From Eledone cirrhosa (Eukaryota): DNA of 64,000 nucleotides. The notes below the pieces were generated by a model, which was not told the DNA's origin, ran no database searches, and was given only the letters and a program-made list of their open reading frames with translations. The stretch spans positions 47,244,001 to 47,308,000 of the forward strand of contig OZ024750.1 in the NCBI GenBank assembly GCA_964016885.1, in the 5' to 3' direction. The translations under genes and the position numbers were made by a program. Shown here one piece after another: positions 19,989 through 62,848 of this stretch (position 1 is its first letter; every line of letters starts with the position of its first letter).

Positions 19989-21129
19989 CAATATTAAATA
20001 AATGGAAAACTATATTTATAAAACCATATTTATTTCATTATATATATTTCGGGGATATCATATTAACAATATGCTATGCCTTCATCAGACACAATACAAT
20101 ATAAACAGTTTTATAGACAAATAGGTTCGACATACCGTTATAACACCGACTTCATTTGAAGAGGTTTACTCTGGCTGTGAAAAAAATTTACACAGAGAGA
20201 AAGAAAAAGAGAGAAAACAGAAAGAAAGACAGAAAACGAAGAAAAGGAAGAAAAAGAAGAGAAAGGGGAAATGTATGGAACAAAATAGAGAGATGGAAAG
20301 ATAGATAAATCGAAGAACTTCATGTAAAGAAACAGAAAGATATATATATATAGAGAGAGAGAGGAAATAGAGATAGATACATATATATATATAGAAAATT
20401 AGGTAGTGGGAGGTCATTTTGAGTAAATGTATCAATGATACGTTTATTTATTTATTTATTTATTTAGCTCAAGTATTAATGTATGGGAGATATATATATA
20501 GAGAAAAAAATATAGAGAGAGGAGAGGAAAAAAATATAGAGAGAGGAAAAAATAGCGAGAGAAAAAAATTTAAAAATAGCCAGATATATTCGAGACGTAA
20601 AAACCCTATGTTTTAATGTATTAATATTTATAAAACTTACACTATATTGTAAATATCAGTATTCCTCTCTCTATATATATATATATCTCTTTCTGTTTCT
20701 TTACATGAAGTTCTTCGCTTTATCTATCTTTCCATCTCTCTATTTTGTTCCATGCATTTCCTCTTTCTCTTCTTTTTCTTCCTTTTCTTCGTTTTCTGTC
20801 TTTCTTTCTGTTTTCTCTCTTTTTCTTTCTCTCTGTGTAATTTTTTTTCACAGCCAGAGTAAACCTCTTCAAATGAAGTCGGTGTTATAACGGTATGTCG
20901 AACCTATTTGTCTATAAAACTGTTTATATTGTATTTTGTCTGATGAAGGCATAGCATATTGTTAATATGATATCCCCGAAATATATATAATGAAATAAAT
21001 ATGGTTTTATAAATATAGTTTTCCATTTATTTAATATTGTAAATATACTCCAAATATTTGTCGAGTGCTTTTATACCAGTTATAAATATTTACTAGTTGT
21101 AACCCAACAATTTTAAATATAACTTTCCT
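19989..21129 (+). mobile_element. Fold-back HHR element family B copy 1
   Basis: Arms about 19989-20366 / 20665-21040, about 88-bp tail, (TA)n flanks. Same family as 59963-62848. Confidence 0.9.
20932..20997 (+). ncRNA. Minimal type-I hammerhead ribozyme (mirror copy 20031-20096 on minus strand)
   Basis: tattttgt-CTGATGA-stem II (catatt/aatatg, extendable)-GAAA-TATATA-TA-atgaaata; 8-bp stem I including two GU pairs. Confidence 0.85.
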
Positions 21130-21257
21130 TATATATATATATATATATATATATATATATATATATATATATATATATATATGTTTGTGTGTATGAGCCG
21201 ACATATCTGCGTTTCATGACCAGTGATATAACTAGAGATAAATTATCAGTCTTAATT

Positions 21258-21437
21258 TTTTTCTAATTTTGGCACAAGGCCAGCAAGTATGCCAGTGCAT
21301 TACTGGTACTTTACTTTATCGACGCCGTAAGGATGAAAAGCAAAGTTAACCTCGACAAGATTTGAACTCAGACCGTAAGGGGCCGAAACTCTATGATATA
21401 AAGCATGACGTCCGACCTTCTACTGATACTGCCAATC
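21258..21437 (-). mobile_element. Meta-domain SINE
   Basis: Consensus match. Confidence 0.88.
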
Positions 21438-58774: not shown

Positions 58775-59468
58775 ATATATATGTATAAAGACAAAGTTTG
58801 TGTATGTGTGTGTGGACAATATTTAATGAGAGCTCATTAATTCTAAACCATTCATGCGATTTCTTTGAAATATTTTAGAGAGCTTCTCCTGTCAAAAAAC
58901 CTGTACATGATCTACAAAGGCTTTCAAAAATCGATATTGGGGCTTCTCGTTTATTTGTGTGAATTTTCGTTAATAATTAAGACAAGAGTTATCTTTCGCA
59001 ATTCGGCTCATTCGCATTTCAATTTACTCTTTGTACTTGAAACAAAGGTAGTCTTCCTTGAGACTAACAATATCATTGTGTATATATCACAACCAGCAAT
59101 CTCTAAAAGATTACTAAGTTAAGTTATATATTTGACATTGTATAATTTATCGTTGATCATACATTAATTGATGTCAATTTTACAATATTATGCTTTGTAT
59201 ATAATAGTGTCTATTATTCACTTCACTGCTCTATTTCATGATGCCATTTTACTATTGTTAAACAAATGTGTACCTAGACTGGATTTCTGTTGTTACATGG
59301 TATAACGGATGACACCGAGATCCCATAATTATATCGCTGGAATAGTGCCTAAAGTTTATAATATTTACATAAATACGTTTTTCTTCTTTGTATTCAAATT
59401 TACATTGTTTAGTTTAAAGAACTACATCGACAGCTACTTGAGCTACCAAGGACGGGTAGTTTAGCTAG
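58775..59468 (+). mobile_element. Probable non-autonomous Helitron
   Basis: 5' tatataaag...gtttgtgtatgtgtgtgt; 3' hairpin ctacc/ggtag (59443-59459) then CTAG|T at 59465-59469. The 5' TC is not clearly visible. Confidence 0.55.
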
Positions 59469-59962
59469 TATGTATATATATATATATATATATATATATA
59501 TATATAGAGAGAGAGAGAGAGAGAGAGAGGGCATAGAACACTGGAAGGTAATATCAGTAGTGGTAGAGCACTCAGTTCATGGGACGTGTTAGGTCATGAT
59601 CATTACGAGCTGAGGATCCGCTAAGATGAAAAAAATATTCTCGGTATGGTGAACTAACTGTTGTGTTAACACTTCTATACACACACACATATATATAATA
59701 TATATATATATATATATATATATATATATATATATATATATATACACACATATATATATATATATATATATATATATATATATATATATATATATATATA
59801 TACATATATATATATATATACATATATATATATACATATATATATATATATATATATATATATACATATATATATATATATACATATATATATATACATA
59901 TATATATATATATATATATATATATATATATATATATATATATATATATATATATATATATA

Positions 59963-62848
59963 TACAATATTAAATAAATGGAAAACTATATTTATAAAAC
60001 CATATTTATTTCATTATATATATTTCGGGGATATCATATTAACAATATGCTATGCCTTCATCAGACAAAATACAATATAAACAGTTTTATAGATAAATAT
60101 ATTCGACATACCGTAATAAACATCAACTTCATTTGAAGAGGTTTACTCTAGCAGTGAAAATACAGAGAGAAAGAAAGAGAGAGAGAAAAGAGGGAAATAA
60201 GAAAGAAAGAAAGACAAAACGAAGAAAAGGAAGAAAAAGAAGAAAAAGAAAAAGAAGAAATGCATGGGACAAAATAGAGAGATGGAAAAATAGATAAAGC
60301 GAAGAGCTTCATGTAAAGAGACAGAAAGAGATATATATATATATAGAGAGAGAGAGGAAATAGAGATAGATACATATATAAATATAGATATAGAAAAATT
60401 AGGTAGTGGGAGGTCATTTTGAGTAAGTGTATCAATGATGCATTTATTTATTTATTTATTTATTTATTTATTTATTTAGCTCAAGTATTAATGTAAGGGA
60501 GATATATAGAGAGATATAGAGAGATATAGAGAGAAAAAATTTAAAAATAGCCAGACATATTCGAGGCGTAGAAAACCCTATGTTTTAATGTATTAGTATT
60601 TATAAAACTTACACTATATTGTAAATATCAGTATTCCTGAATGAAACAAGTATTCACAATGCGTGAAGATTCATTATCTTATGTTTAGTTTTTTAAAAAA
60701 TTCATATGTCTATGTGAATCCAACTGATTCACTCCGCAAATTCAAAGTTACCGGAAAACATTCTCAATGTGGTATAAAAATTTGAGCGTATTATTATTCT
60801 TGCGATTACTCTACAAGATTATCTATCAAGCAGAAATAGAGAGCAGGTTTCAATATACTAATCGAAAATATATATTATATTATAAGCAGAGATAACAATA
60901 ATAATGATAATAAGTAAAAATATATAAAAATATAAAAATATAGAATAGAAAACTAAAAAAGAATATTACGAAAGAATATTACATAATAAAAATATTGCAT
61001 ATTAAAAATACTACGTATTCAAAATATTACGTATTAAAACTTTACATATAAAAATATTAAAAATAAAAATTTACATATAAAAATATTAAAAATAAAAATA
61101 AAATAAAATAAAAAATAAAAATATTATAGAATACTACAATACTAAAAGAATAAAAATGAAAATAAAAATAAAAATCTTTTGATTCCTAAATCTTTGATTC
61201 CCTCTTTTTACTCTTTTTATTGTTTATTTTATTTTATTTATTTTTATTTTTATTTTTATTTTTATCTAAACATTCCTCATGAAAAATTAAGCTACCCTAA
61301 AAGCCGATGCTCCAAATTTTTTGAATTAACCTTACACTTGATAAACTTATATATTAAATATAGGAACATATGTAGACATTATTGGACATCATAATCTTTT
61401 TTGCGATATTCCTTGCTAGATGTGATTTGATAGATAATTTTTGGCTTTGTCTTGTAGTGAACTTGGCAATATATTGTCAATTAACTTTGAAGGGTTGTTC
61501 TTTGTGGTTTATTTTTATTTTCATTTTTATTTTTATTTTTATTTTTTATTTTTATTTTTATTTTTATTTTTATTTTTATTCTTTTAGTATTGTAGTATTC
61601 TATAATATTTTTATTTTTTATTTTATTTTATTTTTATTTTTAATATTTTTATATGTAAATTTTTATTTTTAATATTTTTATATGTAAAGTTTTAATACGT
61701 AATATTTTTAATACGTAGTATTTTTAATATGCAATATTTTTATTATGTAATATTCTTTCGTAATATTCTTTTTTAGTTTTCTATTCTATATTTTTATATT
61801 TTTATATATTTTTACTTATTATCATTATTATTGTTATCTCTGCTTATAATATAATATATATTTTCGATTAGTATATTGAAACCTGCTCTCTATTTCTGCT
61901 TGATAGATAATCTTGTAGAGTAATCGCAAGAATAATAATACGCTCAAATTTTTATACCACATTGAGAATGTTTTCCGGTAACTTTGAATTTGCGGAGTGA
62001 ATCAGTTGGATTCACATAGACATATGAATTTTTTAAAAAACTAAACATAAGATAATGAATCTTCACGCATTGTGAATACTTGTTTCATTCAGGAATACTG
62101 ATATTTACAATATAGTGTAAGTTTTATAAATACTAATACATTAAAACATAGGGTTTTCTACGCCTCGAATATGTCTGGCTATTTTTAAATTTTTTCTCTC
62201 TATATCTCTCTATATCTCTCTATATATCTCCCTTACATTAATACTTGAGCTAAATAAATAAATAAATAAATAAATAAATAAATGCATCATTGATACACTT
62301 ACTCAAAATGACCTCCCACTACCTAATTTTTCTATATCTATATTTATATATGTATCTATCTCTATTTCCTCTCTCTCTATATATATATATATATCTCTTT
62401 CTGTCCCTTTACATGAAGCTCTTCGCTTTATCTATTTTTCCATCTCTCTATTTTGTCCCATGCATTTCTTCTTTTTCTTTTTCTTCTTTTTCTTCCTTTT
62501 CTTCGTTTTGTCTTTCTTTCTTTCTTATTTCCCTCTTTTCTCTCTCTCTTTCTTTCTCTCTGTATTTTCACTGCTAGAGTAAACCTCTTCAAATGAAGTT
62601 GATGTTTATTACGGTATGTCGAATATATTTATCTATAAAACTGTTTATATTGTATTTTGTCTGATGAAGGCATAGCATATTGTTAATATGATATCCCCGA
62701 AATATATATAATGAAATAAATATGGTTTTATAAATATAGTTTTCCATTTATTTAATATTGTAAATATACTCCAAGTATTTGTCGAGTGCTTTTATATCAG
62801 TTATAAATATTTACTAGTTGTAACCCAACAATTTTAAATATAACTTTA
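59963..62848 (+). mobile_element. Fold-back HHR element family B copy 2, about 1.2-kb near-perfect arms
   Basis: Arms 59963-about 61175 / about 61550-62762, spacer about 370 bp, 86-bp tail, (TA)n flanks. Confidence 0.92.
62653..62718 (+). ncRNA. Minimal type-I HHR (mirror copy 60007-60072 on minus strand)
   Basis: Same sequence as the HHR at 20932-20997. Confidence 0.85.

Follow-up and report, generated by a model that had tools for sequence, protein, structure and literature searches.

Palindromes in (TA)n arrays of Eledone cirrhosa as head-to-head pairs of Penelope-like element ends with arms matched by locus

The 64,000-nucleotide stretch of the Eledone cirrhosa genome analysed here (GCA_964016885.1, contig OZ024750.1, positions 47,244,001 to 47,308,000; hereafter the window, numbered from its first letter) contains palindromes whose two arms share variants by locus. 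Each palindrome consists of two copies of an element 3′ end facing outwards, each running into (TA)n, and the elements are assigned with graded confidence to the Penelope-like elements (PLEs). We consider it rather probable that these pairs of PLE 3′ ends formed in (TA)n by two-end priming on one RNA, the two cDNAs being joined afterwards. The element type itself is known; the arm-based clock and the test of two-end priming that the pairs provide are modestly new.

Architecture of the palindromes

The window is AT-rich (GC 32%) and holds 69 (TA)n arrays, matches to which flooded an unmasked self-BLAST; a rerun with short repeats masked returned one dispersed family of short interspersed elements (SINEs) and a set of local inverted repeats. 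Fourteen pairs of inverted, 5′-truncated copies joined head-to-head were identified (Table 1), all bounded by (TA)n, with E bounded on one side by (TA)n(GA)n. Sense direction was assigned by the open reading frame (ORF) in E and C and by the hammerhead strand in A and B. Twelve of the 14 pairs have exactly one tail, an extension of 41-139 bp on one arm only, an outcome with a chance of at most ~0.007 if the ends had chosen their start sites independently (binomial; element I, ambiguous in orientation and in its junction with the ORF at 39030, was left out of the tail count and retained in the arm-distance comparison).

B1 and B2 end at the same two points, one tail-less and one at the tail, as do A1 and A2 and D1 and D2, whereas the central junction is different in every copy and lies at microhomology in several (B1 and D3, for example; Table 1). 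The tail-less arm is longer in six pairs (A2, B1, C1, D3, D4 and E, in the last of which it carries the ORF), the tailed arm is longer in D1 and D2, and the arms are equal in A1 and F. In B2 the tailed arm is probably the longer one, the T-skew of the spacer being +0.33 and that of the tailed arm +0.26; the spacer contained no convincing ORF and had no tblastn match among the matches listed. A rule by which a trailing polymerase always leaves the tailed arm shorter was dropped, since both length orders occur.

Pairing of arms by locus

The initial annotation had reported copy-specific motifs in both arms of each A, B and D copy, and all of them were found where stated: in B1 at 20113 (+) and 20897 (reverse complement), and in the respective arms of B2 at 60089/62618, A1 at 4020/4277, A2 at 44714/44879, D1 at 52837/52903 and D2 at 56816/56867. 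A1 and the element at 5207-9072 fall outside the span that this annotation gave for its observation (19989..62848). We then aligned the four arms of each two-copy family over the region common to all of them. Family B yielded 24 locus-paired, 0 side-paired and 0 cross-paired substitutions in 370 ungapped columns, and its gap blocks were likewise locus-paired (5/5, one of them at the alignment edge); several of the B sites lie in pyrimidine-rich low-complexity sequence, where the exact columns are alignment-dependent. The corresponding counts were 3/0/0 in 53 columns for family D and 1/0/0 in 66 columns for family A, giving 0 side-paired sites among 28 informative ones in the three families together. 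As each family contributes one topology, the chance level over three families is ~(1/3)^3 = 0.04 and not (1/3)^28. Locus pairing in family B is unambiguous and decisive by itself.

The conclusion that the palindromes are not two independent insertions thus stands for most pairs, given locus pairing and the combination of one tailed with one tail-less arm; it gives way at D5, which draws on two templates. As to the further proposal of one template per insertion, the two arms do derive from the same source lineage; that they derive from the same RNA molecule, we infer.

Variants shared by both arms had also been described as private to the insertion. They are common to both arms of a locus, but most are variants of a source lineage, or subfamily. 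States shared by the D3 arms relative to D1/D2 recur in D6 (38735-38771) and partly in D4. Between B1 and B2, differences occupy 26/262 positions upstream of the hammerhead, as against 0/108 in the stretch spanning the hammerhead and the tail-less end and 2/87 within the tail (26/262 vs 2/195 for hammerhead plus tail, Fisher p=4e-5); the contrast persists in non-repetitive upstream sequence (6/76 vs 2/195, p=0.007). That these differences avoid hammerhead and tail points to selection on active source copies and not to post-insertion mutation. Differences between the two E arms, in contrast, are spread evenly (21/168 in the hammerhead region, core included, vs 47/436 in the rest), as expected for decay in place after insertion. 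On these sequence patterns, arm-shared variants appear to have arisen in active source lineages and arm differences after insertion.

Identity of the elements

Family C and element E carry PLE coding sequence. The ORF at 45618-46499 in the family C carrier comprises a thumb, a CxCX5C linker (CNCRNRADC) and a GIY-YIG domain, with one stop, and E retains a broken thumb/GIY-YIG ORF (~6900-8207, sense with the tail-less arm, recovered in several frames by tblastn to the 45618 ORF) whose CxCX5C motif has lost one Cys to a stop. By inspection, the GIY-YIG core of the Hydra-type ORF contains no CxxC (no CCHH finger). Window copies of these Hydra-type elements lack the reverse transcriptase (RT) core, whereas the one longer homolog found, P0001 (58% over 132 aa), has DKT and RWR. 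The Hydra clade is defined by the CxCX5C linker and reported to insert in (TA)n (PMC8557442, section 11), and on the linker motif 45618-47568 and E are assigned to it. Shared with that clade are also a CxxC before a conserved glutamate, CxH after N, a WFNPP-type thumb segment, a CTGAAGA hammerhead-like core and the (TA)n target, with motifs that match the supplementary alignment of PMC8557442. Probes of 16-17 nt from families A-D (n=4) had no exact match in the supplement of that paper, which includes Hydra-1_Obim and in which line breaks could hide a match.

Candidate hammerhead motifs bear on the other families. A motif scan located type I hammerhead cores, complete with both stem I and stem III, in seven arms of A and B and at one lone site, that is, eight matches in the window vs 0-1 in eight shuffles. 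A strict first scan missed B, looser scans caught either A and B or the cores of the long elements, and none caught all. D1 has the 3′ half of a hammerhead-like motif only (GAAAC, stem III, GTC, read from the sequence); family C has, by inspection, a hammerhead-like core at 47414 with a 5-bp stem I, and E has the core only. Taken together, families C and E can be called PLEs with confidence, the assignment of A and B has good support and that of D is likely; F and G are placed by architecture only, and H, which has no one-sided extension, is so placed tentatively.

Longer PLEs are also present. The ORFs at 774-3011 and 42139-43622 contain RT and GIY-YIG domains, the latter scoring just below the Pfam cut-off, and the best homolog of the longest ORF in the window is an Octopus vulgaris reverse-transcriptase protein (68% identity). 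The ORF at 774-3011, accompanied by a hammerhead core at 3307, indicates autonomous PLEs in this genome.

Arm divergence as a possible insertion clock

Differences between the arms of one pair fall into a low class, A1 1/160, A2 1/66, B1 8/378, B2 4/1207 (with 730 bp of perfect identity), D1 1/57 and D2 1/53, and a higher one, C1 5/36, E 58/596, F 18/144, G 16/142, H 13/131, I 14/137 and D3 7/24; short arms give wide intervals (D1, 0-9%). The distances are bimodal, six pairs pooling to 16/1921 and six to 124/1186, and the old class is homogeneous (p=0.90) over spacers of 13-2460 bp. Tight hairpins are not more uniform: in the old pairs, distance and spacer gave rho -0.77, p=0.07, with spacer lengths entered by hand. 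Copies of one family differ from each other by 4-7% (7/160, 28/457, 9/135), as against arms that differ by as little as 4/1207; B1 and B2 are ~6% apart, while their internal arm divergence is 2% and 0.3%, respectively. The breakage of the E ORF in several frames fits an old age.

These distances match the expectation of the initial annotation that arms of A and B would be near 0 and those of C and 5206-9072 clearly higher. Its broader proposal, that arm divergence dates insertions as the two repeats of a long terminal repeat (LTR) element do, gains from the bimodality and from the lack of a spacer effect; it is tempered by being uncalibrated, by the D5 exception and by nested SINEs that lean against it. 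A per-insertion clock for one-tail pairs is plausible on these grounds, uncalibrated as it is, and must exclude two-tail pairs. As an illustration only, the O. vulgaris calibration of Jukes-Cantor distance (JC) 0.09 = 25 million years (My) (PMC13282606) would put the young and old classes at ~1 and ~16 My.

Proposed two-end priming and its alternatives

In the scheme that we favour, a cut target would offer both of its ends as primers for reverse transcription of a single element RNA, which has two fixed start sites. Of the two cDNAs, the one begun at the distal site would become the tailed arm and the one begun at the proximal site the tail-less arm; with the same RNA sequence upstream as template for both, their 3′ ends would anneal through microhomology and the product would then be filled in. 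Arms would start nearly identical and drift apart afterwards, providing a per-insertion clock for one-tail pairs, and two different RNAs would occasionally be used, as in D5. Frangieh et al. demonstrated cutting and extension of both target strands by a PLE protein, with reverse transcription beginning at two RNA sites bracketing the tail (PMC11167929). Within the window the scheme is favoured by the locus pairing, the fixed end points, the single tail in 12 of the 14 pairs, the lack of overlap between the D4 arms and the greater length of the tail-less arm in six pairs. A stricter form, programmed twin priming, in which one ribonucleoprotein primes both double-strand-cut ends from a single RNA at two fixed sites and one-tail palindromes date themselves, has in our estimate slightly less than an even chance.

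Several observations weigh against two-end priming on one RNA, against the clock or against the PLE assignment. One RNA and two RNAs from a single source locus would leave the same locus pairing; in family A that pairing depends on one site, the C1 arms compared with an outside copy over 38 columns show one common state vs five arm-specific ones, and the D5 arms (19617-19761) do not pair by locus. D5, with two tails, and H, with no one-sided extension, are exceptions to the one-tail rule, and in A1 and F the palindrome is perfect through its centre, a feature that Arkhipova et al. take as a sign of self-priming (PMC3846280). Within the young class distances are heterogeneous (p=0.02), all five polarisable non-edge arm differences in B1 lie on the tail-less arm, and assembly polishing could have smoothed near-identical arms. 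For the SINEs nested in G, the distance to the majority SINE sequence of the window is 36/427, which exceeds the per-arm value of G (~0.06) although these SINEs are necessarily younger; the pooling of SINE subfamilies in the majority sequence may explain this excess. Finally, Rfam gave no hammerhead match (among the best 150 of 280 whole-window rows and in two focused regions), monomer minimum-free-energy folds of A, B and C do not take a hammerhead shape, and no ORF is linked to A, B, D, F, G or H.

The alternatives differ in how the second arm arises. It could be produced by fold-back self-priming, a cDNA (or antisense RNA) copying itself and the endonuclease trimming one tail, in which case the clock would still hold. 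Self-priming on an antisense template has been proposed by Arkhipova et al. for PLE head-to-head junctions (PMC3846280) and the tail ascribed to endonuclease resolution (PMC8557442); fold-back also predicts the observed locus pairing, and the centres of A1, F and, nearly perfect, D2 are of the kind it would leave. With a sense template, however, the tailed arm must be the longer one, so fold-back from a tailed cDNA without later deletion is disfavoured by the six pairs with a longer tail-less arm, ORF-bearing in E. Neither D4 arm was copied from the other, because the two do not overlap, and the D5 arms come from different templates; the antisense version fits the polarity better but is without direct support here. 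We judge fold-back unlikely, and give the same low weight to two-end priming on two RNAs (or two units of a tandem transcript) from one source locus by an asymmetric protein dimer, under which arms would not necessarily be identical at insertion. Two RNAs would account for D5, which, being tailed on both sides and combining arms of different D lineages, needed two templates, for the joining of an F-like tail piece to a C tail at 52571-52762 and for the one-sided differences of B1, and a PLE protein is predicted to be a dimer with a multimeric transcript (PMC11167929). Against this, young arms differ by as little as 4/1207 vs 4-7% between family copies, so the templates were not drawn from the family pool, and the only clear two-template pair, D5, is also the only pair with tails on both sides.

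Homogenisation after insertion, by gene conversion or quasi-palindrome correction, would mean that near-identical arms need not be young. Conversion has been invoked between the cis-linked terminal inverted repeats (TIRs) of Mutator (PMC10401008) and would yield locus pairing, and the SINEs nested in G look older than the arm clock; but F, a hairpin with a 24-bp spacer, is as diverged (18/144) as E with its 2.5-kb spacer (58/596), the spacer trend in the six old pairs runs in the opposite direction, and the B1/B2 differences bear the imprint of constraint on the hammerhead region, which post-insertion mutation would not leave. Homogenisation is accordingly very improbable as the source of the matching arms. 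Least credible of all are Foldback-type transposons or miniature inverted-repeat transposable elements (MITEs) with long TIRs and assembly artefacts from fold-back reads: long inverted repeats with TA flanks and the 730 bp of perfect identity in B2 recall them, yet the repeats are terminal on one side only, ends are fixed across copies while centres differ, side-paired variants are absent, hammerhead motifs and PLE ORFs are linked, and arms differ in microsatellite length and substitutions. Among candidate element classes, a TIR DNA transposon, MITE or foldback element was rejected on the one-sided tail together with the 0/28 side-paired sites. A DIRS-type element was rejected, as tail and arm queries match arms only and no recombinase family occurred among 11 scanned ORFs; a Helentron-type reading, which would involve short asymmetric repeats, was put aside on account of the PLE ORFs in E and C.

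Relation to known systems

Published PLE anatomy includes an inverted 5′-truncated copy and a tail of 30-40 bp on one end (PMC8557442; PMC3846280; PMC8969392). The pairs here agree with endonuclease-positive (EN+) PLEs in their head-to-head 5′-truncated copies, one-end tail, putative hammerhead motif in a terminal repeat, palindromes at some junctions and, in longer copies, an ORF that combines RT with GIY-YIG at the C-terminus; they differ in the tail length (41-139 bp) and in that most pairs are tiny (108-430 bp) and without an ORF. The initial annotation of the palindromes was right about the arm matching and did not recognise the elements as PLEs, whose inverted and tailed anatomy was already published. 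Pairing of arms by locus and its use as a clock were not found in the accessible text of the same three papers, and neither PLE dating by arm divergence nor a PLE twin-priming model was found among the papers listed in searches of the open literature. The origin of the inverted and tailed PLE ends has been described as undefined (PMC8557442; PMC11167929).

L1 twin priming provides the closest formal parallel: both target ends prime on one RNA, the cDNAs anneal by microhomology and the 5′ part is inverted (PMC2912911). D4 has the same non-overlapping form as an L1 5′ inversion. Unlike in L1, where the second start site is variable, it is fixed per family here, and overlap between the two cDNAs is usual, so that as much as 1.2 kb is duplicated in palindromic form. 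Non-LTR retrozymes resemble these pairs as short non-coding sequences with a type I hammerhead related to PLE pseudo-LTRs (pLTRs; bioRxiv 10.64898/2026.07.22.740005), but are described there as tandem arrays or monomers and not as head-to-head pairs with one tail.

Dating by LTR pairs relies on two repeats that should enter the genome identical and accumulate differences from then on. PLE arms, by contrast, are inverted and often <100 bp, their identity at insertion is presumed, two-template exceptions occur, and a palindrome is liable to conversion and to deletion at its centre. If the clock holds, it dates single insertions for which divergence from a family consensus overstates age, as with B1/B2. 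Short natural products further make the PLE mechanism countable: the share of one- vs two-tail pairs, arm overlap, the identity of the longer arm and locus pairing can all be scored, and these counts would separate two-end priming from fold-back and two-RNA models. Should programmed twin priming be true, ~14 pairs per 64 kb in an octopus-type genome would be enough to settle the integration mechanism from sequence, and PLE bursts would be datable per insertion without a consensus. Such palindromes are easily misfiled as MITEs or microRNA hairpins; the microRNA matches among the best 150 of 280 Rfam rows for the window were all below threshold.

Inventory and neighbouring repeats

Table 1. Head-to-head pairs, related PLEs and hammerhead motifs in the window
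Feature	Position	Strand	Description
A1	3900..4313		perfect palindrome 3994-4313 plus tail 3900-3993
A2	44688..45009		tail-less arm 44688-44849 (-); short tailed arm from 44850 (+); tail to 45009
B1	19989..21129		head-to-head pair flanked by (TA)n arrays; tail-less arm 19989-20666 (sense -); tailed arm 20662-21039 (sense +); tail ~21040-21129; junction microhomology TTCCT
B2	59965..62849		tail-less arm 59965-61175 (-); tailed arm 61554-62760 (+); tail 62761-62849; spacer 378 bp; end points identical to both B1 end points
C1	55069..55258		left arm tailed (-); right arm tail-less (+); older
D1	52811..53017		left arm tail-less; right arm tailed; centre 13 nt
D2	56710..56899		left arm tailed; right arm tail-less
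D3	4940..5094		older copy; left arm tail-less, right tailed; 24-bp overlap; TCTG microhomology
D4	19799..19906		tail-less arm 19799-19834 (-) joined to tail-only piece (+); parts without overlap
D5	19617..19761		head-to-head pair; tails on both sides; unlike arms (10-bp indel, different ends)
E	5207..9072	-	decayed element assigned to the Hydra clade; tail-less copy (sense -), 3′ untranslated region (UTR) to 5207; inverted tailed copy 8337-8933 plus 139-bp tail
F	4522..4913		near-perfect palindrome 4522-4833 plus 80-bp tail
G	55305..56684		head-to-head pair; 41-bp tail on right; SINE tandem 55379-55826 nested in left arm only
H	9899..10233		inverted pair; both arms abut (TA)n; no one-sided extension
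I	38500-39013		inverted repeat enclosing microsatellites and a D-like fragment (38720-38771); abuts 5′ end of truncated PLE ORF (39030)
Family C carrier	45618..47568	+	5′-truncated PLE assigned to the Hydra clade; 3′ end = family C arm plus tail
PLE ORF	774..3011	+	RT and C-terminal GIY-YIG; CX4CxxC linker; 745 aa without stop; hammerhead core at 3307 (whole region 774-3570)
Truncated PLE	39030-40650		5′-truncated relative of the 774-3011 PLE, ~61% aa identity; ORF 39030-40100; core at 40412
Third PLE type	41218-44586		between (TA)n arrays; RT and GIY-YIG (41218-43780), several breaks
B hammerhead motif	20932..20997	+	CTGATGA...GAAA; predicted cut after 20989
B mirror hammerhead motifs	20031-20096 (-), 62653-62718 (+), 60007-60072 (-)		
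A1 hammerhead motifs	4213-4283 (+), 4024-4094 (-)		
A2 hammerhead motif	44718-44788	-	
Lone type I hammerhead motif	37295-37356	-	well-formed; nearest (TG)n(TA)n array ~130 bp away; without related copies in the window

Two of the longer elements, the family C carrier and the third PLE type, are without an inverted partner; the latter has a 158-bp tandem duplication in its 3′ UTR. The short left arm of D4 was matched to D3 better than 5000/5000 shuffles. Lone ends adjoining (TA)n without inverted partners also occur, namely a B tail-less end (51140-51181) and short C tail ends (19154-19200, 15788-15817). Between (TA)n arrays at 52571-52762, the F-like tail piece, which beats 3000/3000 shuffles, is joined to the family C tail in the same orientation, possibly through a template switch between families. 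Short tandem duplications with TTGATTC are found at the central junctions of F (4662-4690) and B2 (61172-61201).

Each arm of E has a SINE fragment immediately upstream of its hammerhead core (5350-5490, 8685-8780), with a 12-bp repeat resembling a target duplication in the left arm; the fragment was probably already present in the source copy. An Asn-rich linker (7309-7632) between thumb and endonuclease of the E ORF resembles the N-rich inserts of Adineta vaga Penelopes (PMC3846280).

The dispersed SINE-like repeat of the window is ~190 bp long, with ~20 copies between 5857 and 55826 that are frequently in tandem and 3-18% from the majority sequence; at least two subfamilies are visible. No tRNA genes were found in the window. 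ORF fragments at 12200-12688 (-) and 26051-26476 (+), which we take to resemble the C-termini of non-LTR retrotransposons, gave weak unrelated Pfam matches only. Without a further copy in the window, a direct repeat of 261 bp at 93% identity (62944-63204 / 63459-63721) encloses a (TA)n-type array.

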